Virus record (IMG/VR): IMGVR_UViG_3300033508_000214
Location: 32,022 to 96,021 of that record
Source of the DNA: a virus
Length of the DNA stretch: 64,000 nucleotides
Direction: 5' to 3' (one strand)
The position numbers and the translations under genes are program-made. The stretch's first letter is position 1. Every line of letters starts with the position of its first letter. Under the pieces are notes generated by a model. The model searched no databases. It was not told the DNA's origin and worked only from the letters and a program-made list of their open reading frames with translations. Shown here piece by piece: positions 3,445-48,448 of the stretch.

Positions 3445-5064
3445 ATGAACTCGGAAAAAACAAATAAGATTATTGACTTATGTGAAGAAGGTACTACGGC
3501 AGTTACAGAATATAAAACTTCTAAAGGTAAAATGATTCTTAAATGTAAAAATGGGCATTTAAGAGAGATAACACCAGAAAAACTAGTCGCTAGGGGTGAC
3601 AAACGTAAATGTAAAGAATGTGATACCTATAGGGCTGCTAGTAGGAAAACTACTGAAGAATTTGCACAACAATGTTTAGACAAAGGTCTAACTTTATTAG
3701 AAGATTATGTGGATAATAATACTAGATTATTAATACACAATAATACGTGTGGGCATGAGTATACAATAAATCCTAATAGCTTAGTAACTAAAGGTAGTGG
3801 CTCTATATGTAGAGTATGTAATCCTGTAATAAGTAAAAAGCAAGACGAAGTACTAAATACTCTAAAAACCAAGTATTCCTTAGTTCCTACTGAAGAATAC
3901 TTGGGTGTAAGGTATAAGACTATGATTACAAATACTGTATGTAATCATAGTTATTTAGTAGACATATCTAGTATTATTTATAAAGATACGGGGTATATTT
4001 GCCCTGTATGTGGTATTAGCAAAAACCTACTATCTAAAGAAGAAGTATCAGATAAGCTGGCAGTATTTAATTTAACTCCCTTAGAAGAGTATAAAGGAGT
4101 TAGATATCCTTTATTAGTTAGAAATAATATATGTGGACACGAGTACTACTCTGACCCTAATAACTTATTTTACAAGAGTTTGCCTCATGTATGCAAGGTT
4201 TGTCATCCAAATGTATCTGCGGAAGAACAGTCTCTAAGAGATTTTATTTCTAGTATTTATAAAGATTGGGCTATTTATGGTGATAGAATTATGCTGGAAG
4301 GTAAAGAGTTAGATATTATTCTTCCTGATATAGGGCTAGCTTTTGAGTATAATGGAGATTATTGGCATAGAGAAACTGAGATTAGGGATAAACATTATCA
4401 TTTAAATAAACTTATTGCCGTGGAATTATATGAATATCAGCTAATACATATTAAAGGATTACTATGGAATACAAAACCTAGTATAGTTAAATCTAGGATT
4501 AAAAGTATACTAGGTATTTTTGATACAAGAATATACGCTAGAAATACTATAGTAAAACAGCTAGATTATTTTCCTAGAGAATTCCTAGATAATAATCATT
4601 TACAGGGTGCTGGCTCCCCTACTGGAATAAACTTTGGACTATATATTGAGGAGCAGCTAGTTGCCTGTATGACTTTCGCTAAACCTAGATTTTCTAAAGA
4701 ATATACATATGAGCTTATACGCTTCTGTTCTTTATTAAATTATTCTATAGTAGGCGGGGCGTCTAAGTTATTAAAAGCATTTAGAAAATCCTACTCAGGT
4801 AGCATTATCTCTTACGCTGACAGGTCGTGGAGTAAGGGTAAACTATATAGTAATTTAGGATTTACTTTTGTAAAGTACACAGAACCAAATTATACGTATG
4901 TAAAAGGGCAGAAAGTACTTAGTAGGTACCAGTGTCAGAAACATTTGCTAAGAGAAATGTTTCCTGGTACTTATGAGGATGAATTAACTGAAAAGGAAAT
5001 TATGTCTAAAAATGGGTTTATTTGTTTGTATGATTGCGGTAGTAGTGTATGGGCACTTACATAA
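3445..5064 (+). CDS. Hef-like free-standing endonuclease: zinc-ribbon repeats plus PD-(D/E)xK/DUF559-like nuclease and C-terminal domain
   Basis: Repeated CGHEY..P....C..C units; ELDI..AFEYNGDYWH; ELIRFC..GGASKLL; opposite orientation to flanking head genes. Confidence 0.7.
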   Translation: MNSEKTNKIIDLCEEGTTAVTEYKTSKGKMILKCKNGHLREITPEKLVARGDKRKCKECDTYRAASRKTTEEFAQQCLDKGLTLLEDYVDNNTRLLIHNNTCGHEYTINPNSLVTKGSGSICRVCNPVISKKQDEVLNTLKTKYSLVPTEEYLGVRYKTMITNTVCNHSYLVDISSIIYKDTGYICPVCGISKNLLSKEEVSDKLAVFNLTPLEEYKGVRYPLLVRNNICGHEYYSDPNNLFYKSLPHVCKVCHPNVSAEEQSLRDFISSIYKDWAIYGDRIMLEGKELDIILPDIGLAFEYNGDYWHRETEIRDKHYHLNKLIAVELYEYQLIHIKGLLWNTKPSIVKSRIKSILGIFDTRIYARNTIVKQLDYFPREFLDNNHLQGAGSPTGINFGLYIEEQLVACMTFAKPRFSKEYTYELIRFCSLLNYSIVGGASKLLKAFRKSYSGSIISYADRSWSKGKLYSNLGFTFVKYTEPNYTYVKGQKVLSRYQCQKHLLREMFPGTYEDELTEKEIMSKNGFICLYDCGSSVWALT

Positions 5065-6376
5065 CAAAAGAGTAACAAGCATACCGTAATGCATCTGCTA
5101 TGTGGGAATGCTCATCGTGTTGTGGTTTTTCTATACCACTAACTGCGTCTGTCTTCCACCTATATTGATCTAGCATAGCGAGCGTGTTTGTGCAGTTTGG
5201 CGACACTAGTAGTCTTCCCTGACCAATTAAGGTCTGCACGTAAGCTATGCCCTCTAGTACTTGTTTGCGTGCTTTTAGGGTCGAGATATTATAGCTATAA
5301 GCCAAATCAGCAGCTGTCTGCGCTGCTGCACTATCAATAAAGATGCTCTCTATTCCGAACTCTTCAACAAAGCTTTTAAATGCAGTAGCATGTTGCTCAG
5401 TAGTTCTATTTGCTTCTACGTATTCAGCACAAACGTGAAACTTATCATCATAAAACGCTATAACTATAAAAGCAGTTGAGTCTTTAAAGCCGGGATCTAA
5501 TCCAGCTATGTACTCTGCTCCAGCAACATGTGTATAAGGATTAACATACTCAGCACTAAAGTCGCTATAAATCTGACCCTCGAATGTAGTAAATGATGCC
5601 ATGTACTCCTGTGCAAACTCTGCTTTAGACATCGACCGACGCGCTTCTGCTACGTCAACTTCCTTCATCCGTTTGTTCTCTGTATAGTCAGCAGTTATTG
5701 ACGCCCACTGAGGAAATTGAGAGCTGAAGCCGCGTTGAAAGAACTTACTAAACCAGTTATTCTTGCCTCGTGGCGTACTAATAAATATAGCTTTCGAATT
5801 AGGTGTATCAAGCGTAGGTCGTAGAGAAACATTAAACGCTTCTTCTGCGTCTGCCCCTAAAGCAGCTTCATCAAAAATGATACAAGAATACGAGCGTCCT
5901 ACGCACGAATCAACTGTTGATAATGACCCCATTCTAATAGAAGAGCCATTAGACAGTTCAATCACTCTATCTTTAGCATTGTCCCTATCAACTTCAAGAT
6001 CAAATGCCTTAATTAACTTACGTTGTATTTCAAAAGAAATTGACGACAGATTATAGTTAGGCGACATAATTAATATATGGCAGTTAGGTACTAAAGCTAC
6101 TAACTGTCCTACAATATTAGATATATACGTCTTACCTAAACGTCGTGCAAGAGCAGCACATACAAACCTATACTTAGGATTGTTTATTGCGTTGATAAGA
6201 GCAATTTGAGGAGCATTAATTTGTTCCCATGCAGTTGACTTTCTGTCGTCAATAGGATCTCTAGCAGGCAGTAATTTCAAGTAATTAATAATAGGCAACT
6301 TTATGAATCTGCTGTGAGCAGGAAACTCCGTTATAGAAGTGCTAGAAATATCCTCCCTAGAAATATTAAGCATCAA
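5057..6376 (-). CDS. terL: Terminase large subunit
   Basis: Walker A ARRLGKT, Walker B IIFDEAA, ISTPRG, RNase H-like GLDPG and HIADALRY. Confidence 0.95.
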   Translation of the reverse strand: MMLNISREDISSTSITEFPAHSRFIKLPIINYLKLLPARDPIDDRKSTAWEQINAPQIALINAINNPKYRFVCAALARRLGKTYISNIVGQLVALVPNCHILIMSPNYNLSSISFEIQRKLIKAFDLEVDRDNAKDRVIELSNGSSIRMGSLSTVDSCVGRSYSCIIFDEAALGADAEEAFNVSLRPTLDTPNSKAIFISTPRGKNNWFSKFFQRGFSSQFPQWASITADYTENKRMKEVDVAEARRSMSKAEFAQEYMASFTTFEGQIYSDFSAEYVNPYTHVAGAEYIAGLDPGFKDSTAFIVIAFYDDKFHVCAEYVEANRTTEQHATAFKSFVEEFGIESIFIDSAAAQTAADLAYSYNISTLKARKQVLEGIAYVQTLIGQGRLLVSPNCTNTLAMLDQYRWKTDAVSGIEKPQHDEHSHIADALRYACYSFVM

Positions 6377-6854
6377 TAGTCCCTTTAATTAACTGCTCTA
6401 TTAAACTAGAATACTTACTATTACCAGCATTATCATTGATTTGCACGTTAACTTGATTTTTAAGACTATTAGCAGTACGTATTTTTTCTAGAGCAATTTC
6501 CTTATCTAGAAGCTCGATGGTCATCTTATGGGATAAAGCTAGAATCTCTGTAATGTCTTTAGTGGAACCTGTATCCGATTCATCCATTTCCTGTAGCTTT
6601 TTCTTGATAATAGTATCCATTAGATCTCTCATCTGGAACCTATTATTAAATCCTAGGCTAAAAAATACGTTGTTAATGTACGCACGTACTTCTTTTCGGT
6701 CTAGAATATCTGATACTAGTTCTTTAGGTATGTCTAGATCTTCGGCTACTTTTGCTAGATCTGGGTTTTGAAGATACGCATTGGCTACTTGAAGCGCTTC
6801 TGGACTAATAGCAATATATTCTGCTGGAGTATTTACTGGTAAATTATCGCTCAT
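6366..6854 (-). CDS. terS: Terminase small subunit (T5-type)
   Basis: 162 aa, ISPEALQVANAYLQ..HKM; directly upstream of and overlapping terL. Confidence 0.85.
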   Translation of the reverse strand: MSDNLPVNTPAEYIAISPEALQVANAYLQNPDLAKVAEDLDIPKELVSDILDRKEVRAYINNVFFSLGFNNRFQMRDLMDTIIKKKLQEMDESDTGSTKDITEILALSHKMTIELLDKEIALEKIRTANSLKNQVNVQINDNAGNSKYSSLIEQLIKGTIDA

Positions 6855-7139
6855 GTTATACCTTTATTTTGATTATTTTCTCTATTATAGCATGGGGGGT
6901 TGGGGTTGTCAATGACTAAAATTTTTTAGCTTATGGGCGATTTGTGCGTACATTTAGATTTGTGTGCTTATAGCGATTTGTGTACTTTATTCATTTGCTA
7001 CACTTAGGGTCTTTTTGCTACGCTTTATTCATTTACTACACTTAGGGCATATAAGGCACCGAAAAAGCTGGTGTAGAAATTTTAAAAAGGCCGCGTGAGA
7101 TTGGGCGGCCGTATGCGAAGCGAAGCGGGGTCTGAAAAC

Positions 7140-7475
7140 CGCCCCATTTTGGTGCATAGTTCTACTCAATGCAAGGGTATGGTGCGCACAGTCCTGGTGT
7201 GTGCCCCGGCCTGGTGCGAATGTGCTAACTTGGTGCGATTATTTTGGTGCATTGCACTGATCTGGTGCATAGCTTTTTTCAATGCTACACTTCGGTGCGA
7301 TTATTTTGGTGCATTGCACTGATCTGGTGCATAGCTTTTTTCAATGCTACACTTCGGTGCATAGGTTTTTTCAATGGGCTAAGATGGTGCAGTACGCACT
7401 GACCTGGTGCGCACAGTCCTGGTGCATAAAATATATAAGCACGCACTTAATTGGTGCTTGCACTAAATTGGTGCA
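7140..7475. repeat. Array of about 16 TGCAC-N7-GTGCA-like 17-bp sites, including a 62-bp direct duplication
   Basis: TGCACTAAATTGGTGCA 7459-7475, TGCACTGATCTGGTGCA 7253 and 7315, CGCACTTAATTGGTGCT 7442, CGCACAGTCCTGGTGCA 7410, CGCACTGACCTGGTGCG 7395, CGCCCCATTTTGGTGCA 7140. Confidence 0.9.
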
Positions 7476-7822
7476 TAAGTAGCACTGCGCAAACTGTTGC
7501 GTCAAAACAACATAGGGCTAGAAGGGCTTAGAATGGCTATTTCAGCGTTTTTTTGGCTTGGGTGTAGGGTAGCCTTGGGATGCTTGCGTTTGGCCTGTAT
7601 AGCCCCTTTTGAAGGGTTTCCCTATGGGCTGACATCGGGTTATTTATAGCATCTAACGCACCGATTAGAAGCGTGAAGCGTGAAGTGTTGTATTTTTGCA
7701 ACAGTAAAAAATTTTTGAATTATTTTCGTTTGTGGTGTCCAAACAACACTTTTGCCCATATAATTACCCCAAGGGAAAAACAAGATGCTACAAAAATTGT
7801 AGCATCATTTTTGGAGTATATT

Positions 7823-8077
7823 ATGGCAGTTTCTTCTAAACTTGAGTTTGTTCAAAGTTTCACCGGGTTTCTGCCTGGTGAGTTTAAGGGGGCGTTTTTA
7901 TTTACAGTTATTGACTGCGGAAAGCAGTCAATAACTGTCGCACTGCCTAACGCAAAATGGGCAGACTTGCAGGTAACCCTGAATGGGTTACTTATTAATC
8001 TCACAGGTGAGTATCCCCCTCAGATTAATAGGGCAATTAAGTTTGCCCGGAAACTATTCCCACACTGGCAGGGATAA
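7823..8077 (+). CDS. Hypothetical pre-early protein
   Basis: GGAG-TATATT-ATG translation start shared with the next cassettes. Confidence 0.65.
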   Translation: MAVSSKLEFVQSFTGFLPGEFKGAFLFTVIDCGKQSITVALPNAKWADLQVTLNGLLINLTGEYPPQINRAIKFARKLFPHWQG

Positions 8078-8163
8078 TACTCTGCCAGTCAACCCGGATG
8101 TTATCCGGGTTGAAAATATAATATATCTTGCAAGATATATTATATTTTCAACTGGAGTATATT

Positions 8164-8298
8164 ATGTTTTCAATTGTTCGCGTTGACCAGTTTGGTTTTA
8201 TTAATTTTGCCGTCCATCTGGATGGCGTGGAGCTGGTTCGATTTGAAAAATACGGCTTGGCTGTGGATTTCATCCGCGCTATGGATGATATAGGATAA
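8164..8298 (+). CDS. Small hypothetical protein (44 aa)
   Basis: CTGGAGTATATTATG start after a double hairpin. Confidence 0.6.
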   Translation: MFSIVRVDQFGFINFAVHLDGVELVRFEKYGLAVDFIRAMDDIG

Positions 8299-8380
8299 TA
8301 TATAACCCTGCCAGATATTATCTGGCAGGGTTAAAATTTAAAGTAGCGGTCGATGCTTTAAATTTTAACTGGAGTATATT

Positions 8381-8461
8381 ATGTTGACTATTATTGCCAT
8401 CGGGTTTGGTTTACAGATTTTCGGAATGTGCGTTATTTATTTATGCGTTAAAATGCGCTAA
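8381..8461 (+). CDS. 26-aa hydrophobic peptide
   Basis: Same CTGGAGTATATTATG start; MLTIIAIGFGLQIFGMCVIYLCVKMR. Confidence 0.5.
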   Translation: MLTIIAIGFGLQIFGMCVIYLCVKMR

Positions 8462-8487
8462 TAAATAATAATAATAATAACCCTTAG

Positions 8488-8526
8488 AAACCTGATCAGG
8501 CAATACCTGATCAGGTTTTCTTTTTT
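8488..8526 (+). terminator. Intrinsic terminator
   Basis: AAACCTGATCAGG-N-CCTGATCAGGTTT followed by a T-run. Confidence 0.75.
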
Positions 8527-8530
8527 GTAT

Positions 8531-8636
8531 TATATAATACTTATCTCGGGTCTTATATAATACTTATCTCGGGTCTTATATAATACTTATCTCGGGTCTT
8601 ATATAATACTTATCTCAGGTCTTATATAATACTTAT
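8531..8636. repeat. 23-bp tandem repeat x4.6 (TATATAATACTTATCTCGGGTCT)
   Basis: Copies at 8531, 8554, 8577, 8600 and a partial copy at 8623. Confidence 0.95.
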
Positions 8637-8846
8637 ATTCGCGAATTTGCGCCAAGTGCTTACCTGAATTTATTTTTATTTATGTAGGATACTACTACAA
8701 GTATAGCTGCGCCGATTTTTGCTCGCCCTTTCACAACCTCATTATACACCTATTTTTAAACTGTGCGCATAAACTTGAAAATATATTTTTTCGTTGTTTT
8801 TGATGTTTGTCAGCTTCGGGTAAGGAACCCGGTGTAGGAACCCCTT

Positions 8847-8948
8847 TGCTATGCTTTTCATAGCGCCAAATTTTACCATAAAATCAAGGCAAAAAATTAG
8901 ATGTTGCAGTCTAATTTTTAGCGGCAAACCTGGAGTATAATCCACGCT
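8847..8948. promoter_or_regulatory. Repeated ~105-bp regulatory module, copy 1
   Basis: GCTATG-N-CATAGC palindrome, GCCAAATTTTACCATAAAATCAAGGC, AAAAATTAG..CTAATTTT, CCTGGAGTATAAT; near-identical at 10146 and 11713. Confidence 0.8.
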
Positions 8949-9193
8949 AGACTATAAAGGATTAATATGGATATTATTGATATTATTGCTGTTATTATTA
9001 CTATTATTAGTTTGCCATTATTTATTTGGAGTTAATATGAGCATTTATTTGGATATGATTAACGCACAGTATAATGAAAATTATACTGACATTAGTTACC
9101 TGGGAAATAGTGATTATCTCTTGATTAAGGGTAATCGGTATGGTACGGCTAAAATTATCGATAACGTGATAATCGGATATTATAGGGGCTAAT

Positions 9194-9532
9194 ATGGAAA
9201 TTCAAATATATGCTGAAACCCTTTGGATTTCATATAAAAAGATATTCCCTGAGTTAAGGGGTGAATGTCCTAAAATTATATTATCTAATAGGCTGACTAA
9301 AACAGCTGGATATAATATAAGCGAACATAATACTATTACACTAGGTAATAAGTTTTTCAAGCGTAACATGGATAGTATGCTGAAAATTACATTACCCCAC
9401 GAATTAGCACATCAAATTGATTATAACCTGCATGGTTGGTCAAAAAATAGAAAACATCACAATAGTAATTGGTGCGCTATTATGATGATTATCGGTTTAG
9501 ACCCTGACCCTTATCATTACATGGAGATATAA
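9194..9532 (+). CDS. SprT-like zinc metalloprotease
   Basis: SNRLTKTAG, HELAH (HExxH), downstream HH..W. Confidence 0.8.
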   Translation: MEIQIYAETLWISYKKIFPELRGECPKIILSNRLTKTAGYNISEHNTITLGNKFFKRNMDSMLKITLPHELAHQIDYNLHGWSKNRKHHNSNWCAIMMIIGLDPDPYHYMEI

Positions 9533-9696
9533 TATGATATACATTGTTTTGCCATATATTGCCCCGATTACTAAATTTGATCTGGTCGATGAGATGGAAT
9601 ACGAGGATAATGAAGATTTATTTATTACCCTAGAAGATGCGGGCTTAGAAAATAAACTAGAATACGATACTGTACCTGGTGCATTAAAAGAGTATT

Positions 9697-9918
9697 TTGA
9701 TAATGAATGTTAATTATATTTCCTGGTTTGCCACCGTATTATCTATTATTGGTGCATTTACGGTGGCAAATGGTATTACCCTTTTCGGATACTGTGCATT
9801 TATATTAGGTTCTATTGGCTGGGGCTATATTGGAATTACTAATAAAGATAACGCACTTATTACAATGCAGGGTGTTTTTTTAATGGCTAATATAATGGGA
9901 TTATATAATGCAATATGA
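9697..9918 (+). CDS. Small membrane protein
   Basis: Three hydrophobic segments. Confidence 0.55.
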   Translation: MIMNVNYISWFATVLSIIGAFTVANGITLFGYCAFILGSIGWGYIGITNKDNALITMQGVFLMANIMGLYNAI

Positions 9919-10072
9919 TATTTATGTGATAATGTTTAGACCACCTTTCTCGGATAAGTATTATTCGACTAAAGCATTTAATACCTTAGAAGATGCGGAT
10001 ATTTATATATTTGAAAATTCGGAGCTTAACCCGGATGCTTATTATGTTGCAGTAATAACTGTTAATTAAAAT

Positions 10073-10253
10073 AACCCGGTCAGATATAATATCTGACCGG
10101 GTTATTTTTTGGATCTTAACCTTACACCAAACTGACAGGCCTGGATGCTATGATTTTCATAGCGCTAAATTTTACCATAAAATCAAGGCAAAAAATTAGA
10201 TGTTGCACCCTAATTTTCGCTAAAAACCTGGAGTATAATTACCGCATGGCAGG
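10073..10253 (+). promoter_or_regulatory. Repeated terminator plus regulatory module, copy 2
   Basis: ACCCGGTCAGATAT-ATCTGACCGGGT hairpin, T-run, CCTTACACCAAACTGAC, then the module. Confidence 0.8.
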
Positions 10254-10380
10254 GAAACACTGTCAGGGTTAACTGTAGGTGATAATTTTATATACTATTA
10301 ACTTTATTTTATGAGATACTACATTATGCTATACATTGATGGGGTTTATTTTTGGTTATATGATAAGGAGGTTAATTAAT

Positions 10381-10845
10381 ATGAAAAGAATTGCAATATA
10401 TGATATGGACGGTACTATTGTTTGCAGTTTGCACCGATATAAAACAATAGATGGTAAAATAGACTTGCAATATTGGCGGGATAATGAATATAGGGCAATG
10501 GACGATTCATTATTGCCATTATCTGCACAATATAAAAAGGATTTAGCAGATAATGATTGTTTTGTTATTATAGCAACTGCTAGAATACTGCGGGAACCTG
10601 ATTTGTGTTTTATTAATACTATTCTCGGTAAACCAGATTATATTATATCTCGCAAAGAAAATGATTCTCGATCTGGTGCATTATTGAAAGTTTTAGGTTT
10701 AAATAAGCTATTTAGTCTAAAACAATTTAGTAAAATCAAATCAGATATGATAGTATTTTACGAGGATAATATATCTTATCTCAAAGCCGTTTGTGATAAG
10801 TTTAATTGTACAGGTATTTATATTCCAAGCAAACAAGGACATTAA
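10381..10845 (+). CDS. HAD-family phosphatase (PNKP phosphatase-like)
   Basis: IYDMDGT motif I, IATAR motif II, K, FYEDN motif IV. Confidence 0.8.
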   Translation: MKRIAIYDMDGTIVCSLHRYKTIDGKIDLQYWRDNEYRAMDDSLLPLSAQYKKDLADNDCFVIIATARILREPDLCFINTILGKPDYIISRKENDSRSGALLKVLGLNKLFSLKQFSKIKSDMIVFYEDNISYLKAVCDKFNCTGIYIPSKQGH

Positions 10846-10923
10846 TTATATTAGTTTGTAGATTCTAATTAAAAATCTACTTGTTTACTCAGACAATACT
10901 CTGAATTACTTTTGAAAGTTATT

Positions 10924-11622
10924 ATGGCTAAAAAACAATACTTTGCTATTATTGATACTGAAACAACTATTAATGATACTGTTGCTGACTGCGCGATTAT
11001 TATTTGTGACCGTGAAGGGGTTATCTTTAATCAAATGGCCGTATTAATTAAAGATCATTTTGACACTAAAGAATTATTTTATGATATTACAGCTAAAGGG
11101 TTATGGTCATTAGAATATGCAAAAGAAAAACGTATTAAGTATAATGAGATGCTTAATGCTGGTTTCCGCAGTATGGCATCCGTTAATGCTATTAATAAAT
11201 GGATAAACCAAGCGATTGGTAAATATAATCCAATACTAACAGCATATAATCTGCCATTTGATGCAAATAAATGTGATAATACTGGAATTGACTTAACTGG
11301 ATTTGCAGATAGATTTGATTTGTGGGCGGCTTCAGTTGGCAATATCTGTAATAGAAAATTATATAAGCAGTTTTGTGTTGAGAATCATTTATTTAATAAT
11401 CGCACAGATTATGGTAATATGACATTCAAAACGTCGGCTGAAACAGTTACGGGTTATTTAAATAATAATATGACCGACGAGCCACATACTGCGCTGGAAG
11501 ATATTATCGGATACGAGTTACCTATTTTGAAACACATTCTAAGGATTAAAAAATGGCGTGATAATATCAAGCCTTATGATTGGCGCGTGCATCAGGTTAA
11601 GGATAACTATATTGCAAAATAA
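10924..11622 (+). CDS. DEDDh 3'-5' exonuclease
   Basis: IDTETT, AYNLPFD, HTALED. Confidence 0.85.
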   Translation: MAKKQYFAIIDTETTINDTVADCAIIICDREGVIFNQMAVLIKDHFDTKELFYDITAKGLWSLEYAKEKRIKYNEMLNAGFRSMASVNAINKWINQAIGKYNPILTAYNLPFDANKCDNTGIDLTGFADRFDLWAASVGNICNRKLYKQFCVENHLFNNRTDYGNMTFKTSAETVTGYLNNNMTDEPHTALEDIIGYELPILKHILRIKKWRDNIKPYDWRVHQVKDNYIAK

Positions 11623-11627
11623 TTAGA

Positions 11628-11820
11628 AAACCCTGCCAGATACTATATCTGGCAGGGTTTTCTTTTGGATCTTAACCTTACACCAAACTGACAGGCCTGG
11701 GTTGGGCCAGGATGCTATGATTTTCATAGCGCCAAATTTTACCATAAAATCAAGGCAAAAAATTAGATGTTGCAGTCTAATTTTCACTAAAAACCTGGAG
11801 TATAATTACCGCATGGCAGG
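11628..11820 (+). promoter_or_regulatory. Repeated terminator plus regulatory module, copy 3
   Basis: CCCTGCCAGATA..TATCTGGCAGGG hairpin, T-run, CCTTACACCAAACTGAC, then the module. Confidence 0.8.
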
Positions 11821-12064
11821 AAAACAGGGTGCTGGCAGGTGAAAAAGAATTTAAGGCAACAAAAAATAAACTTGCAAAGATCGTAAAAACCATGTTATAC
11901 TGTAGGCTTGAAAGGGAAAAGCGGGAAACAGGCAAAAACGCAAAGCGCGCTGCAAAAATAAATTTTGCAAAATGCGAAAATAAGCGCAAAACACTGTTAC
12001 AATGTAGGCTAGACTGTAGCGAAACAGGACAAAATCGCAAATCTTTAATTTTTTAGGATTATAT

Positions 12065-12409
12065 ATGGCTACCGAAAAAACCGTTAATTATACTAATGAG
12101 CAAACTGCTATGGTAATTGAACAGTATCTTGAAAATCCAACAACGGATACTGTTGCGAAACTCGCAGAAACTCTTGGAAAAACAGTTCGTAGCATTACTA
12201 TGAAACTGGTTCGTGAAAAAGTATATGTTAAAAAAGAATATACTACTAAAACTGGTGGCAAAGTAGTAAAAAAGGATAGTCTGATTGACAAACTATCCGA
12301 GTTTGTCGAATTTACGGAAAATGAGCAAACTAGTTTTGAACACGTTAATAAGACAGCATTAGTTAAACTTATTAATAAGCTCCAAGGATATTTGCCAGTT
12401 ACTGAATAA
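12065..12409 (+). CDS. T5 A2-like DNA-binding protein (paralog 1)
   Basis: YT.EQT..LA..LGKTVRSITMKL...VY..K..; similar to 15663 and 17500 and to remembered T5 A2. Confidence 0.7.
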   Translation: MATEKTVNYTNEQTAMVIEQYLENPTTDTVAKLAETLGKTVRSITMKLVREKVYVKKEYTTKTGGKVVKKDSLIDKLSEFVEFTENEQTSFEHVNKTALVKLINKLQGYLPVTE

Positions 12410-12508
12410 GTAATTAATAACCCTGCGGGGTTATTAATAAAGGGTTTAACCCTTTATTAATAATCGTCGATTATTAACCTGGTGTAACTTAACTTTTTAG
12501 GATATTAT

Positions 12509-12805
12509 ATGGCTTCCAATACCAAACTTTTCCCGGAACAAAAACAATACGTTAAACAATGGTGCAAAGATAATGATACAGCTGAATTTTTTGATAATGA
12601 AAAAATCACGATTTTGGCAAAGCCTGATTTTAAAGGGTCAAGAATGTTTGTGGTTTCTATTTCCACAATGGCACCTAATGAAAAGAAGTTTAGGTCATCG
12701 GTGGGTAGGTATTATGCCATTAGTAATATGGAAAATGGGCAGTATGTATTGATGGATTATAATACTATGTGGAGTTTTTTGGAAGCTAATGATTGTGTTT
12801 GTTAA
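12509..12805 (+). CDS. Hypothetical protein
   Basis: AGGA SD; cassette organisation. Confidence 0.6.
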   Translation: MASNTKLFPEQKQYVKQWCKDNDTAEFFDNEKITILAKPDFKGSRMFVVSISTMAPNEKKFRSSVGRYYAISNMENGQYVLMDYNTMWSFLEANDCVC

Positions 12806-12889
12806 TACTAATTAGTATTAATAACCCCTTTCGGGGGTTATTAATAAGGGCTGAACCCTTATTAACAATCTTTTTAACTAGGAGTATAT

Positions 12890-13048
12890 ATGAATCTCGC
12901 AGAAATTAATGCTTTTCGGGTTTCTCACGGTTTGGCGGCAATTGAAGTTAATAAACCTAAAAAGAAAAACAATAATAAGGCACTGCGTGCGCAGGAAAAC
13001 AGGGATATTAAGTCAATGCGTACTGGTGGAAAAAAGGTAAGTAAATGA
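12890..13048 (+). CDS. Small basic protein (52 aa)
   Basis: AGGAGTATATATG start; MNLAEINAFRVSHGL.. Confidence 0.55.
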   Translation: MNLAEINAFRVSHGLAAIEVNKPKKKNNNKALRAQENRDIKSMRTGGKKVSK

Positions 13049-13177
13049 AAATCTGGCAAGTTTTCTATACTAACGGGTCTAATATGATTATATTGTCTCC
13101 TAATCGGAGACATATATGGAACAAGTATGTTTGTGTCGCTAAAATATATGAGATAGTTATTTATTAAGGAGTTAATT

Positions 13178-13420
13178 ATGTTGGCTGGTCTGGTTATTTT
13201 GGAAGATATTACTATTTGTTATTCTCAAAATGAGGATAATACTATTTCCTATAAGATCACGAATACTTATTCTGGCGAATCTGAGGATATTATAGGTATT
13301 TCTTCTGTGAAGTTTTTCAAGGCATTATCTATTGCCGTACATAATGACGGCACCCCGGATTATGAGGAGGATTATCCTGATGCCGAGGATATAATGCTTG
13401 ATATTCGCTGGATTCCTTAA
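13178..13420 (+). CDS. Acidic hypothetical protein
   Basis: TAAGGAG SD. Confidence 0.6.
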   Translation: MLAGLVILEDITICYSQNEDNTISYKITNTYSGESEDIIGISSVKFFKALSIAVHNDGTPDYEEDYPDAEDIMLDIRWIP

Positions 13421-13426
13421 TTTAAG

Positions 13427-13495
13427 AAACCCGGTCAGATATTATCTGACCGGGTTTCTTTTGGATCTCAACCTTACACCAAACTGACGGACCTG
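13427..13495 (+). terminator. Repeated intrinsic terminator
   Basis: GAAACCCGGTCAGATATTATCTGACCGGGTTTCTTTT, identical to 14293. Confidence 0.85.
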
Positions 13496-13805
13496 GTGGC
13501 CCTGGCCGTGCTATCATTTTGATAGCATGGTGCGCCGATTTTAGCTTACAATACTTACAACACCCTTACAAAAATAAATATATATTTTCGTTGTTTTTCG
13601 GTGTTTGTCAGTCTTATGTAAGTTTTGTTGTGTATCATTAGGTGTGGGCGCCGATTTTTGCTATAGATTTTGTAGCTAAAAATATATTTCAAATTAGGTT
13701 CAAGACTCTAATTTTTGGCTGTAAACCTGGTGTATAATTACCGCATGGCAGGAAGTTAGACTGCTATCATTGACCAGATTGTTTCTATTATCTAAGGATT
13801 ATATT

Positions 13806-14009
13806 ATGCGCACCATTACTATTGAAGTTACTTATTCTGCTGAGTATCTTATTACGGATGCAGAATTTGACTTGGTACATTATCTGTATAACCTGTCAGA
13901 ACCTAAAAAGGTTACCGCAGTTAAGTTTATTAAAAATCAACATAATCTGTCACTGAAAATCGCAAAGGATATTTGCGATAAGATCGGACATAATCCGATT
14001 CAATACTAA
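13806..14009 (+). CDS. Ribosomal protein bL12 C-terminal-domain-like protein
   Basis: KKVTAVKFIKNQHNLSLKIAKDICD resembles the bL12 CTD pattern K+.+IK.+R...GL.LKEAKD+V. Confidence 0.55.
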   Translation: MRTITIEVTYSAEYLITDAEFDLVHYLYNLSEPKKVTAVKFIKNQHNLSLKIAKDICDKIGHNPIQY

Positions 14010-14100
14010 AATAACCTGCCAGATAATATCTGGCAGGTTATAAATATAATAGTATCGAACTAGTTACTATTATATTTATTGGTAACTAAGGAGTTATATA

Positions 14101-14289
14101 ATGGCTGGTATGATTTTCACTTATGAATCTCGCAAAAATGGTTGGCTTATTGAAATTGAGGGAAAAACAATTAAACTATGGTTATCTGATGGATTTTCTA
14201 ATTTTACAGGAGATTTTGATGAATTAAATGAGGCTTATCCAGAAGTTATTGCCGAACTAATTGAAAAGAAAATTATTACTAAAAAATAA
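14101..14289 (+). CDS. Hypothetical protein
   Basis: TAAGGAG SD. Confidence 0.6.
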   Translation: MAGMIFTYESRKNGWLIEIEGKTIKLWLSDGFSNFTGDFDELNEAYPEVIAELIEKKIITKK

Positions 14290-14292
14290 AAG

Positions 14293-14362
14293 AAACCCGG
14301 TCAGATATTATCTGACCGGGTTTCTTTTGGATCTCAACCTTACACCAAACTGACGGACCTGG
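14293..14362 (+). terminator. Repeated intrinsic terminator
   Basis: Same hairpin and tail as 13427. Confidence 0.85.
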
Positions 14363-14829
14363 TGGCGGCTACCCTGGCTTACACCAAACTGACAACGCTA
14401 TGATTTTCATAGCGCCGATTTTTGCTCGCCCTTTCACAACCTCATTATACTCTTTTCTGACCCTAGGAGTAGCAAATCGCAAAATATATTTTTTTCGTTG
14501 TTTTTTCGCACTCACAAATTGATAGCTGTTGTTTTTTCGCACTCACAAATTGATAGCGCTATCATTCTGGTAGCTTGCTATGATTTTTGTAGCATTCCCC
14601 CTTCGTGGCGCCACAGTGGCCTTGTCAACAGTGAAAAACTGATTGTGTTTCTGCGCCACAGTGGCCGCTCGACTGCGCCATTCTACTACAGTGCCCGGTC
14701 GATTGTCAAGCCCAGATTTCCGCGCTTCGGGTCAGGAAATCCATAAATTTAAAAAATTTTGTGTTGCAAAAATTTGCACTTGTAATTTATTTACAATTAT
14801 TGTATAATATAGTAAATTAGGAGAAAAAT

Positions 14830-15495
14830 ATGACTTGTGGAATTTACTTACTTACATTTGGGGAAAATTTATACTATGTTGGTCAGTCTATAGATATAGA
14901 AAGAAGATATGAAGAGCATTTATTAAATATTAAAAAAGGCTCTGCTAGTACAAAAATGCAAGATGCGTATAGTGCTTTTGGACTACCAAAACATTCTATT
15001 CTAAAAGTATGTAATAGTTATGAGCTGGATGAATATGAAAAATTTTATATAATTCAATTTAATTCATACTATAAAGGTTTAAACTATAATAGTGGGGGAG
15101 CTGGAGTAAAATATGGTGTATTTGAAGAAAGTATGTTTTATACTTTAAAAGGAATACTTAAAGCTTATTGTATAAATAAAGTTTCGGTAGATAGACTAGC
15201 GTCGTATCTAAATACTAGTCCATCAATAGTAATTGATTTATTAGCTGGTAATAAATATACAATGATTAGAGATGTATTTCCAGAATTGTATGATATAGCT
15301 ATTAATAAGTATAAAGATGCTAATAAAATTATTAATACGTACCCTACAATAGTTAATGATAAAGGTGAAGAAGTAACTATACCTTACCGTGGGGCATCTA
15401 AGTTTGCTAAAGAAAATAACTTAAATCCTGCAAATTTGTCTAAACTGCTGAAGGGTTCCGCCCATCGTTGTGGCACGTGGAAAAGAGCATATTAG
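14830..15495 (+). CDS. GIY-YIG (Seg-like) homing endonuclease
   Basis: GIY..YVGQS..R..H..E..N; own promoter TTGTAA-N17-TATAAT at about 14780-14808. Confidence 0.85.
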   Translation: MTCGIYLLTFGENLYYVGQSIDIERRYEEHLLNIKKGSASTKMQDAYSAFGLPKHSILKVCNSYELDEYEKFYIIQFNSYYKGLNYNSGGAGVKYGVFEESMFYTLKGILKAYCINKVSVDRLASYLNTSPSIVIDLLAGNKYTMIRDVFPELYDIAINKYKDANKIINTYPTIVNDKGEEVTIPYRGASKFAKENNLNPANLSKLLKGSAHRCGTWKRAY

Positions 15496-15662
15496 GATCA
15501 GATAAACAGTGTTGAACTCGTTACCTAAATAGCTTATAATTGATATATCAGAAAATAAATGTATACCAACATACATTGAACTTTCGCAAATGAAAATTTG
15601 ATCTTGCGCGTTAGCTAAAAACGCTTTATAATTTATACATAAACCAACGAAAAGGAACTGTT

Positions 15663-15977
15663 ATGACTACTGAAAAATCTGTTGTGTCTTACACTGCTGA
15701 ACAAACTGCTACTGCTATTGCGGATTACGCAGCAGGTGATACCATTGAAGCTATTGCGGATACCTTGGGCAAGACTGTCAAGTCTGTAATTGCTAAGCTG
15801 GCTAAGGAGGGTGTGTACAAAACTCCTGTTAAGGCTAAAACGACCCGAGTTACTAAAGCTATGCTGATTTCTGCTATTGCTGTTAAGTTCCGTGTAGAAG
15901 GTGAAGCTCTTGCCTCCCTGGAAAAAGCTGATAAGGCAACTCTGGAAATCTTGGCAGGTACGGAAATTTCGGCTTGA
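15663..15977 (+). CDS. T5 A2-like DNA-binding protein (paralog 2)
   Basis: LGKTVKSVIAKLAKEGVYK..LASLEKADKATL. Confidence 0.7.
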   Translation: MTTEKSVVSYTAEQTATAIADYAAGDTIEAIADTLGKTVKSVIAKLAKEGVYKTPVKAKTTRVTKAMLISAIAVKFRVEGEALASLEKADKATLEILAGTEISA

Positions 15978-16002
15978 CCCTAAGTTCAGCGTATGTTATA
16001 AT
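15974..16002 (+). promoter_or_regulatory. Sigma70-type promoter upstream of the hammerhead RNA
   Basis: TTGACC-N17-TATAAT. Confidence 0.75.
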
Positions 16003-16006
16003 TATT

Positions 16007-16157
16007 GTATGTTAAGGGAACTCTCTGATGAGTCTGACCCTAGGTTTAGCGAGTGCTATTCCTGAATACAGACGAAACCCTAGACCATCAATCGTATGTT
16101 GCTGAAACATTCTCAGCCTTCACCATACGCTCAACCTAGGGTAAGAGCTTGCATACG
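16007..16157 (+). ncRNA. Type I hammerhead ribozyme
   Basis: CTGATGA 16025-16031; stem II GTCTG/CAGAC; GAAA 16074-16077; stem III ACCCTAG/CTAGGGT; GUA cleavage triplet 16141-16143; stem I CTCT/AGAG extended by GTATG/CATAC. Confidence 0.85.
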
Positions 16158-16486
16158 TGTAAGACTAGCCATCTAGTAAGGCTATAAACTAGAAAGTCGT
16201 TGCTCCTGACTATAAATTCGGGCCGCCAGATTAGGGCGTTGTACTAGAATCCCTGAGGCTAAACAGGTAGAAACGTAGCAACCTCTGCTAGAGGGTTTCT
16301 AGTGCACAAAGAAGTGTTTAAAATACAGCTATAATTTAATACGAGTGGTAAATTAGTCCACACTAAGAATGCTTTGTTAAAAGTAAATGAGAGTAATAAT
16401 TCGTAATCTCTCTAGCGTCTAATAAAAACTTATAGACAATCTTTCTGGTTTGGTCGACTAGAAAGGCTCTCATAGACCATAAGTTC

Positions 16487-16525
16487 AAAAGCCCTGTAAC
16501 ATTGCTGTTACAGGGCTTTTGTTTT
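16487..16525. terminator. Bidirectional intrinsic terminator
   Basis: AAAAGCCCTGTAACA-N-TGTTACAGGGCTTTT. Confidence 0.85.
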
Positions 16526-16907
16526 ACTGCTTATACTCTAATAAGGAATTTGTATAGTCAGTATAATTTTTACTAGCTATACTATTATTATTTATTAGTT
16601 TCTTAAATTTAAGCCCTGGAATACCTAAAGTATTAATTAATTTGAAGTCTTTAAAGCCCCAGTCTTGTACATCCTTATCTAATAAGTAACTAGGATCTTG
16701 TTTAACAACTAAAGAATTAAAATAAGACTTAAAGGATCCGGTTTTTGGTTTATTAGGAAACCAAGTTTTCAAATCTTTTTTAAATTGTGCGGAAGATTTT
16801 ACAAATAGCTCTTCTATATCTTCGATTGGCTCGTTCATTAATAGGTTTAATAAATAATCAGAATTATATAGCTCTGGAATATTAAAATTTGTAGGGTCAA
16901 TTTTCAT
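16524..16907 (-). CDS. Hypothetical protein
   Basis: 127-aa ORF with upstream minus-strand promoter. Confidence 0.55.
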   Translation of the reverse strand: MKIDPTNFNIPELYNSDYLLNLLMNEPIEDIEELFVKSSAQFKKDLKTWFPNKPKTGSFKSYFNSLVVKQDPSYLLDKDVQDWGFKDFKLINTLGIPGLKFKKLINNNSIASKNYTDYTNSLLEYKQ

Positions 16908-16942
16908 AATAAACTTTCTGTTAAAAATTTATTTCACTAAAG

Positions 16943-17335
16943 GCGCCAAATTATACTTCAGTGATAGTGTGACTGTCAATACTATTTTTCTGACCCTAAG
17001 TGTAGCATATTGTGCAAGTCTGTATTTTAACAAAAAGTTTCGTTAAAAATTTATAGCAAAAAATTTCGTTATAAATTTTTTGTATTTTAGTGCTAGACGT
17101 GTATATTTTCGAAGCTCCACTACATTTGATAAAATTTCATCAATTCTAGAAGGATTTGCTCAAGTGTTATATGTACGCAGTAGTCTGCTACATAGGCCCT
17201 ATTTGCTAAAATATACTATAGCTAAAAAGTTTATAGTACTATCACAGTGGCGACTTTTTCGAAGCTTTTGCGCCAAATTATACTTCAGTGCTAGTGTGAC
17301 TGTCAACACTATTTTTCTGACCCTAGGTTGAGCAT
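16943..17335 (-). promoter_or_regulatory. Two direct-repeat minus-strand promoters
   Basis: ~65-bp repeat at about 16943 and 17270; reverse complement TTGACA-N18-TATAAT-TTGGCGC. Confidence 0.75.
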
Positions 17336-17418
17336 ACGTATCGATTTATGTATATTCGATCACTGGACCGCTCACTTGGTTAGTCAATGTGTCATTCAGT
17401 GGGTTAGTCAGTAACCAC

Positions 17419-17466
17419 AAACAAAAAAGCCCCTAAGCTTCAACAGCTTAGGGGCTTTTTTGTTTT
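17419..17466. terminator. Bidirectional terminator
   Basis: AAAAAAGCCCCTAAGCT..AGCTTAGGGGCTTTTTT. Confidence 0.85.
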
Positions 17467-17499
17467 CTATTCAACTTACCGTCTGTTCGTCTAGCCTGC

Positions 17500-17853
17500 T
17501 CAACTTACTGTCTGTTCGTCTAGTCTGCTCAACTTAGGTTCAAGAGCGTCTAGAATCATGATTAATACGTTTTTATTGACTTTTTCAAGGCTTTCTAGAA
17601 ATTCTAGGTCTTTTCCTAGAATTTGTGCGATTTTTTCGATATATTTGGACTTTCTAATAGGGGTGCGGCCCTGTTTAGTCACATATTCCTTGCGTTTGTA
17701 GACTCCTAAGGCTGATAACTTGGATATAATGCTGCGCTCAGGTATTTCTTCTCCGAGTTGGGCACCCAAAGTCGTAGCTATGGTTTTTGGATCCATTTTT
17801 TGGTCTACGTACATCTGCCGCGCCAATTCGGTAATTTCTTGATTGTATTTCAT
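17500..17853 (-). CDS. T5 A2-like DNA-binding protein (paralog 3)
   Basis: RSIISKLSALGVYKRK..IRKSKYIEKIA..LESLEKVNK; closest to remembered T5 A2. Confidence 0.7.
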   Translation of the reverse strand: MKYNQEITELARQMYVDQKMDPKTIATTLGAQLGEEIPERSIISKLSALGVYKRKEYVTKQGRTPIRKSKYIEKIAQILGKDLEFLESLEKVNKNVLIMILDALEPKLSRLDEQTVS

Positions 17854-47707: not shown

Positions 47708-48448
47708 ATGTCAGAAACTAAAAAAGCAAAATGGAATGACGAAGCAGTTGCACAACTCTTGTCTATCGTAGGTAGCGCAAGCCCTGTAACAGTTGCCCTA
47801 GTTGAACAAGCAGCAGAGGCTCTTGGTACTTCTACTCGTTCTATTGCTTCTAAGCTGCGTCAGCTTGACCACGAAGTAGCAAGCATGGCCGTAGCTAAAG
47901 TTGCAACATTCAGTGATGAACAAACAGATGCTCTAGCAGCTTTTGTTAATAATCACGCAGGCCAGTTCACTTATAAGGAAATTGCCGAACAATTTCCAGG
48001 TGAGTTCAGTGCCAAGCAAGTGCAAGGTAAGTTGCTAGCTATTGAACTCACTAGTAAGGTTCGTCCTGCTGATAAGTTGGAAGTAGCCACTAAGTATAAT
48101 GAAGCTGAAGAAGCTACATTTATTAGTATGGCGCAAGCAGGTAGCTTTATCGAAGAAATTGCTGCGGCTCTTGGTAAGACTATTGCTAGCGTTCGTGGTA
48201 AAGCATTGAGCCTGTCACGCAAGACTATTATTGATAAGATTCCTGCACAAAAGGAAAGCCATGCTAAAAATGCGGTCGATCCAGTAGATGCACTTGGTGA
48301 TGCAATGGCTGCTATGACTGTAGCAGAGATTGCAGCAGCAGTTAATAAAACTGAGAGGGGAGTTAAAACTCTTCTGACTCGTCGTGGTATTAACGTAGCA
48401 GATTACAAAGGCGCTGAGAAAAAAGCTAAGGCCGAAGCCAAAGCGTAA
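47708..48448 (+). CDS. D5: T5 D5 DNA-binding protein
   Basis: RSIASKLR, SVRGKALSL, KTERGVKT.LTRRG. Confidence 0.88.
   Translation: MSETKKAKWNDEAVAQLLSIVGSASPVTVALVEQAAEALGTSTRSIASKLRQLDHEVASMAVAKVATFSDEQTDALAAFVNNHAGQFTYKEIAEQFPGEFSAKQVQGKLLAIELTSKVRPADKLEVATKYNEAEEATFISMAQAGSFIEEIAAALGKTIASVRGKALSLSRKTIIDKIPAQKESHAKNAVDPVDALGDAMAAMTVAEIAAAVNKTERGVKTLLTRRGINVADYKGAEKKAKAEAKA

Follow-up and report, generated by a model that had tools for sequence, protein, structure and literature searches.

An array of 16 co-oriented 17-bp dyad units of the form YGCAC-N5-TGGTGCR, look-alikes of the boxes bound by the nitrogen regulator NtrC, is located at positions 7140..7475 (+ strand) of the window analysed here, i.e. 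the whole stretch of 64,000 nucleotides corresponding to bases 32022-96021 of a 96,021-bp phage contig. The array lies in non-coding DNA beside a predicted genome end, and the reading tentatively preferred here, a possibility not far from even, is that it provides promoter-less boxes for the NtrC of the host on the first DNA to enter the cell, where it would act as a decoy or a sensor.

The contig (a single phage, G+C 37%, no end repeat in the record) is classified in IMG/VR as linear and about 90% complete, and was found in microbial-mat metagenomes of 4 studies. Based on the identity of its terminase subunits to those of T5-like phages (45% for TerL, 38-40% for TerS), it was considered to represent a distant T5-like phage. 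Flagellin look-alikes, used as a hint of the host, are most frequent in Pseudomonadota, which gives weak support to a host bearing NtrC. To the left of the array are found the T5-type terminase small subunit gene terS (6366..6854, -), the large subunit gene terL (5057..6376, -), a protease-capsid fusion and the portal (both on the - strand), and an HNH endonuclease gene on the + strand. Some 230 bp to the left of the array, the promoter predicted for terS-terL (6884..6912, -; a TG-extended TTGACA-17-TATAAT) is a perfect 12/12 sigma-70 match, unexpected for a T5-like late operon; it is also the sigma-70 promoter nearest to the units (6912-6884), none of which is overlapped by such a promoter.

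terS and the first ORF of the plus strand (7823) are separated by 970 bp, and the array is contained in this gap. This first small pre-early ORF (84 aa, 7823..8077, +) has the start context GGAGTATATTATG, found again at 8152 and 8369; the interval 7812-8470 of the window holds 3 tiny ORFs (84, 44 and 27 aa) with a near-identical start context, (C)TGGAGTATATTATG, and a strong hairpin after each, giving the appearance of mini-gene cassettes that were duplicated where the pre-early region begins. The DNA right of the array was considered as pre-early because it carries a homologue of T5 dmp (10336..10845, +) and two A2-like genes; tblastn searches with the T5 pre-early proteins recovered dmp only, A1 and A2 not being found. 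The interval 8300-8950 is strain-variable (contigs of 4 metagenomes break or diverge at 8307, 8709, 8779 and 8847), and a 23-bp tandem repeat of 4.7 copies containing TATAAT is present at 8530-8636. By blastn, the intergenic region had no match among 50,697 phage records. No credible RNA family was obtained over 6500-17500 with Rfam, even at permissive thresholds, and a possible RNA structure at 7486-7712, clamped by an inverted repeat, was rejected as it folds no better than shuffled sequences (z -1.2).

The units start at 7140, 7170, 7185, 7202, 7221, 7235, 7253, 7283, 7297, 7315, 7345, 7375, 7395, 7410, 7442 and 7459, all on the + strand. When the 16 units were aligned on their right half, GGTG was found in all 16 and the next C in 15, the five spacer positions being variable, and the left half at fixed distance showed G in 14/16, C in 12/16, A in 10/16 and C in 11/16; a YGCAC block is thus placed exactly 5 bases upstream of the TGGTGC half, resulting in the 17-bp dyad. 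These results bear out three claims of the initial annotation: the array of about 16 units (the ten starts that it named are all real), the 32-bp pairs 7170/7202 and 7410/7442 (both correct), and the conserved TGGTGC half with variable spacers.

On the + strand between 7150 and 7474, the right half is read as TGGTGC 13 times, CGGTGC twice and TGGTGT once, with no TGGTGC on the - strand. TGGTGC occurs 38 times on both strands of the whole 64-kb window (14.9 expected), and 42 times on the + strand and 11 times on the - strand of the 96-kb genome. Searches for TGCAC-N7-GTGCA with at most 2 mismatches gave 11 sites inside 7140-7475 and 12 in the remaining 63.7 kb, and a position matrix built from the units found nothing comparable elsewhere in the 96-kb genome. 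The array region is also GC-richer than the genome. Unit starts follow a 16.0-bp lattice (resultant R of 0.84, the 99th percentile of random-gap arrays being 0.77), and this lattice, together with the many neighbouring pairs 30-32 bp apart (n=8), puts alternate sites on one face of the helix. Inside the array, a perfect 62-bp tandem duplication (7232-7293 / 7294-7355, +), at which public contigs break, is a sign of recent expansion; together with several repeated sub-blocks, it shows that the array is still expanding. Conserved arms combined with diverged spacers point to selection for the binding of a protein, and speak against a young neutral tandem repeat. A separate dispersed motif, YGCTNNACYTAGG, has copies at 6996 and 7034 (beside the terminus), at 7283 and 7345 (in the 62-bp unit) and at 14.4-22.2 kb; with at most 3 mismatches it gives 39 matches for 21.7 expected.

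The NtrC box is given in the literature as TGCACCAnnnTGGTGCA (PMC8743547) and also as TGCACC(A/T)4TGGTGCA (PMC4987338). The consensus of the array, TGCACTAATTTGGTGCA, agrees with the latter at 16 of 17 positions and has 13 of the 14 specified NtrC positions. Individual units differ from TGCACCAnnnTGGTGCA at these 14 positions by at most 2 mismatches (four units), by 3 (four units) or by 4-5 (eight units), the best being TGCACTAAATTGGTGCA (7459..7475, 1 mismatch), followed by the units at 7140, 7253 and 7315 (2 mismatches each). In the 96-kb genome, all sites with at most 2 mismatches (4/4) were confined to the array, as were 4 of 7 with 3 mismatches. Of the two halves, the left one is systematically the poorer, usually showing T or A at a place where NtrC boxes have C.

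In the E. coli glnA enhancer (NC_000913), the two strong sites TGCACCAACATGGTGCT and AGCACTATATTGGTGCA are 32 bp apart and are followed by weaker co-oriented GGTGC halves, and the 4 strong units of the array (at most 2 mismatches) are equal in quality to these two sites. The likeness to NtrC boxes noticed in the initial annotation therefore holds, by the consensus as well as by the co-oriented halves and the 32-bp pair of glnA. Array and glnAp2 enhancer share the 17-bp dyad with GCAC...GTGC arms, the co-orientation of the right halves, the 30-32-bp pairs and the mixing of strong and weak sites. They differ in that NtrC enhancers have 2-5 sites and serve a sigma-54 promoter, whereas the array has 16 sites on phage DNA adjoining a predicted genome end, with no such promoter in reach.

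The left genome end is predicted from a family-wide terminus module at 7054..7139 (+), GGCACCGAAA ... GCGTGAGATTGGG ... GGTCT-N3-AACCGCCCC, which is homologous to the left terminal-repeat boundary of T5, Vibrio phage phi3 and Providencia phage PR1. In most relatives the version of the module found between terS and the early genes is composed of GCACC-N-AAAG, CCGTG(T/A)GGGTGGG and AGTCT-N3-AACCGCCC, the element in the middle of GCACC-N-AAAG and AGTCT-N3-AACCGCCC reading CCGTGWGGGTGGG. The module spans the annotated left boundary of the repeat, and its conservation extends from the three cultured phages to a dozen uncultured relatives (for example at L007:8533, L009:3371 and L010:4078). An alignment of 11 uncultured relatives with T5, phi3 and PR1 shows AACCGCC without variation, 35-45 bp into the annotated repeat. 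By transfer from the cultured phages, the first base of the direct terminal repeat is predicted at 7093 (phi3), 7104 (T5) or 7105 (PR1), so that the first unit (7140) would be situated 35-47 bp inside the repeat; the inner boundary of the repeat may be near 14-17 kb, which is a guess. Mean contig depth left and right of the array was 10.7, 6.5 and about 4.5 against 16.2, 12.9 and 8.1 in 3 metagenomes; the depth, read from assembled contigs in which read starts are not visible, is 1.5-2.0x higher on the right in 3 of 4 runs, and this step fits a collapsed repeat. The placement at the likely genome end made in the initial annotation is in agreement with both the homology and the depth step. Its comparison with T5, whose terminal repeat was said to begin shortly beyond the terminase genes, has to be corrected, as the right repeat of T5 starts 3.1 kb beyond terS.

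The left end of T5 enters the cell first (bioRxiv 10.1101/866236), and by analogy the array-bearing end may do so as well. Like the array region, the left terminal repeat of T5 is long, non-coding, repeat-rich DNA of the first-step transfer, and its boundary is homologous. It also carries boxes for a host DNA-binding protein, to which the units of the array can be likened as candidate boxes of this kind. The position is different: the repeat-rich injection stop signal of T5 (repeat region 3, with DnaA boxes and other repeats) lies at the inner end of the repeat, whereas the array is at the outer end. No DnaA-box cluster was found near the array, and the paired DnaA boxes and inner-end location that characterise the T5 stop signal are both lacking there. 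In T5, phi3 and PR1, the 250 bp that follow the boundary contain no succession of TGGTGC-type units.

Sigma-54 promoters (-24 GG / -12 GC) were searched around the array, where the best match was 8/12 within 6500-9500, and in the whole genome, where no match reached 11/12. A sigma-54 reading of the conserved GGCACC-N-AAAG element was rejected because the -12 GC is not conserved. In the proteins of the phage, the best score was 9.6 bits for the HTH_8 domain (within the D5-like regulator) and 12 bits for the Sigma54_activat domain (a Walker motif), and no sigma-54 gene or sigma-54 DNA-binding domain was found. An NtrC-type binder would thus have to be that of the host, and the lack of a sigma-54 promoter, of an activator and of sigma-54 in the phage suggests a promoter-less landing pad for it.

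The same dyad is present in other phage families. When IMG/VR was scanned for a pattern of two neighbouring dyads, at least 120 loci were obtained, and among the matches listed 27 loci have at least 4 dyads within 500 bp. In 23 of these 27 array loci (again among the matches listed) a TerL homologue is found in the same locus, mostly 0.85-2.0 kb from the array, which places the arrays just upstream of a terS-terL operon. Besides T5-like phages, the lineages among the matches listed are one called here family X, whose nearest cultured relatives are Caulobacter phages (TerL 42%), and a diverse family named after its locus L100; the array is missing from Caulobacter phage RLK and from the isolate MW202545, two cultured phages related to family X. 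Dyads were restricted to the array in 4/4 records checked. No ORF is shared between the phage of the window and 8 array-bearing loci (6 of family X, 2 unclassified), a result that favours a common host factor. In 1.1 Mb of the listed loci, 53 sigma-54 promoter matches of at least 11/12 were found for about ten expected (a rough estimate), the majority at 25-260 bp from a dyad; they are oriented both toward and away from the terminase genes. Such an arrangement is characteristic of sigma-54 promoters that depend on an activator, and the dyad of these phages is therefore best read as an NtrC-type activator site.

Perfect GCACCA-N3-TGGTGC dyads with TGGCAC-N5-TTGC sigma-54 promoters (up to 12/12) occur in the gap upstream of terS-terL in two families of uncultured phages, for example at L066:800-1150, L072:1890-2060, L051:1650-2120, L039:13130-13340, L047:1898-2105 and others; the promoters of these gaps point both ways, and some face each other. 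At L100:2440-2720 and L088:400-1000 (-), which belong to one family, some ten consensus DnaA boxes (TTATCCACA) are interspersed among the dyads next to the packaging genes. This recalls the DnaA boxes proposed for the stop signal of T5 injection, or else an element of the oriC or datA kind. Sigma-54 dependence of a phage has been published for Pseudomonas phage YuA (Ceyssens et al. 2008, as cited in bioRxiv 10.1101/2023.10.13.562163). The modules of L066, L072, L051 and L039 have in common with the array the clustered GCACCA-N3-TGGTGC dyad in a non-coding gap beside terS-terL; in these modules, which like YuA belong to the phage sigma-54/enhancer systems, promoters are 25-260 bp from the dyads, whereas the phage of the window has none of at least 11/12. 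A literature search found no paper on NtrC-box arrays in phages, which agrees with the earlier statement that no such array has been described, the use of sigma-54 by YuA being nevertheless published.

For comparison within the T5-like lineage, 16 related loci with TerS 55-96% identical were collected from IMG/VR and JGI metagenomes. An identical contig has the full array. A relative (L002, TerS 96% identical) has only 4 units, which are the counterparts of the first two and last two units of the window, so that the middle twelve would represent an expansion in the window or a loss in L002; between the two, half-sites are conserved and spacers have diverged. In 14 other related loci (TerS 55-71% identical) the dyad is absent within 0.8-4 kb beside terS and the terminus module is kept; most have their first sigma-70 promoter and early gene within 60-200 bp of AACCGCCC, on its far side from terS. 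Two further phages (L065 and L029, TerL 64-65% identical) have arrays of the same dyad inside the pre-early region, 1.3 and 4.6 kb from the terminus module, respectively, and altogether promoter-less arrays were found in 4 T5-like lineages with TerS 49-96% identical. This patchy presence and shifted position indicate that the array is an accessory of the pre-early non-coding DNA, and not a conserved packaging signal; the distances in L065 and L029 further indicate that placement at the very end, and hence an end-specific role, is not conserved. In one relative, lineage-specific TGTAAAG repeats with 10-11-bp spacing (L003:3700-3760 and L003:2560-2600 (-), 4 and 3 copies) occupy the place of the dyads of the window, directly upstream of the -35 of two early promoters.

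According to the preferred reading, the array would consist of 16 sites of the kind bound by NtrC (an enhancer-binding protein with a Fis-type HTH), grown from about 4 by internal tandem duplication. Situated in non-coding DNA where the direct terminal repeat begins, they would be carried first into the cell, as in T5, and would be bound by host NtrC dimers without serving any sigma-54 promoter. Two array copies per virion DNA would provide 32 sites, and more after replication. These would not be a promoter element, and would either soak up NtrC or report the level of NtrC-P early in infection. Several points weigh against NtrC as the binder. Only 4 of the 16 units have strong-site quality and the left half is weaker, and a binder that is itself asymmetric, for instance an HTH monomer with two domains, would also agree with the single orientation and unequal halves. 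Titration of a host transcription factor would bring little benefit to a T5-type phage that rapidly degrades the DNA of its host, an objection on which the lack of an A1 homologue in tblastn searches of this phage bears. NtrC is moreover scarce in the cell unless nitrogen is limiting.

A binder encoded by the phage itself is the main rival explanation, less probable and rather doubtful. The array would then be a landing pad for the A2-like paralogs, the D5-like regulator or a virion protein acting on the entering DNA, for example in DNA transfer, in end handling or in bridging the two terminal repeats. One candidate is an A2-like DNA-binding protein of 114 aa (12065..12409, +), predicted to form two homeodomain-like three-helix bundles, which is accompanied by a second A2-like paralog of 104 aa (15663..15977, +) in the same pre-early block as the array; the D5-like regulator is encoded at 47708-48448. 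The A2-like genes match phrog_1725 (E 3e-7 and 3e-5) and, in BLASTP, T5 A2 (E 3e-4), which is annotated in the T5 record as a DNA-binding protein required for second-step transfer; 191 database relatives were obtained at E <= 0.001 in a length-limited search. The two paralogs and the D5-like regulator have a common HTH pattern, A..LGK..RS...KL, and three such paralogs are encoded by L029. Two HTH bundles per chain, as in the model, would fit the unequal halves and the single orientation of the units, and the array of L029 lies between two A2-like genes, that of L065 about 0.9 kb upstream of one. Against such a binder, array-less relatives also encode A2-like proteins, and the dyad recurs in unrelated phages (no shared ORF in the loci compared), where it accompanies sigma-54 promoters. 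A PDB sequence-profile search with the A2-like protein was empty, and a Foldseek search with its model gave weak homeodomain-like and transposase HTH rows without a significant match (best E 0.26), and no Fis or NtrC DNA-binding domain. It is also unlikely that a phage operator would by chance hit 13 of the 14 specified NtrC positions.

A role in terminase recognition or packaging, with the units as cosB- or pac-like sites for TerS or as a brake at the terminal cut, is improbable. Repeated sites near a packaging cut are classical, as in lambda cosB and P1 pac, and the array shares with these its short repeated sites near the packaging cut and terS: it is 285-620 bp upstream of terS and 35-47 bp from the predicted cut, and the arrays of other phages are mostly close to TerL. 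It differs from them in not being conserved with TerS, in changing place, and in a motif common to phages with unrelated packaging genes. TerS is 96% identical in the relative with 4 units instead of 16; the 14 loci without the dyad retain the terminus module; and the arrays of L065 and L029 are displaced from it. TerS as the binder, one of the proteins suggested in the initial annotation, is weakened by this absence from most relatives with a conserved TerS and by the displacement in two. When the TerS family was compared by hhalign with the small ORFs upstream of TerL in the two other families (putative TerS from rough ORF calls), no similarity was detected, so that these putative TerS have no detectable homology to that of the window. 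Better candidates are available for terminase recognition in the repeats just outside the predicted boundary (6937..7047, +), because CTTAGG-type repeats, particular to each relative, are present at this place in all of them (as 17-bp tandem repeats in L013), so that family-conserved repeats stand across the boundary from the array. In the window they comprise GCGATTTGTG in two exact copies, further TTTGTG-like copies recognised by eye, and a 25-bp repeat carrying TGCTACACTTAGG, present in 2 copies. The terminus module itself is a candidate for the cut signal of terminase.

An orphaned or degenerating NtrC/sigma-54 enhancer, which would have lost its promoter and whose boxes would have expanded by replication slippage with little or no function, has a similarly small likelihood. 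It would account for the nearest sigma-54 match being 8/12, for the recent exact duplications, for the 4 versus 16 copies in near-identical phages and for the weakness of most units. It is opposed by the conservation of half-sites against diverging spacers, seen among the units of the array and again when the window is compared with L002, and by the persistence of promoter-less arrays in the T5-like lineages mentioned above.

A replication origin with iterons, or a Chi-like array against exonuclease, is very improbable: the repeats are iteron-like, the dyads of L100 and L088 are interleaved with DnaA boxes, the core CTGGTG recalls E. coli Chi (GCTGGTGG) and the escape of the T5 leading end from RecBCD is an open question, but the array has no DnaA-box cluster and no adjoining initiator gene (its neighbours being terS and small pre-early ORFs) and its region is GC-richer than the genome. 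The Chi-like reading was rejected since an asymmetric single-strand signal cannot explain a second half-site at fixed spacing, and also because, to judge from the known polarity of Chi recognition, an enzyme that enters at the left end would meet a Chi-like word of the + strand in the wrong orientation.

The terminus module, being conserved, could be used to predict the repeat ends of uncultured T5-like genomes from their sequence. The sigma-54 promoters found beside dyads suggest that the use of host NtrC and sigma-54 by phages is much commoner than the single published case of YuA, and this side result may matter more than the array. A broader proposal, speculative and on balance unlikely, is that environmental phages widely plug into the Ntr/sigma-54 system of their hosts, and that this T5-like lineage has a promoter-less NtrC sponge or sensor of 32 sites per genome which blunts or reads the nitrogen-starvation response before any phage protein is made. 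If host NtrC does bind the array, it would be a device made of DNA only, by which a virulent phage titrates or senses a nitrogen regulator at entry; this would bear on infection in nitrogen-limited mats and waters, and on the fate of the leading end of T5-type phages.
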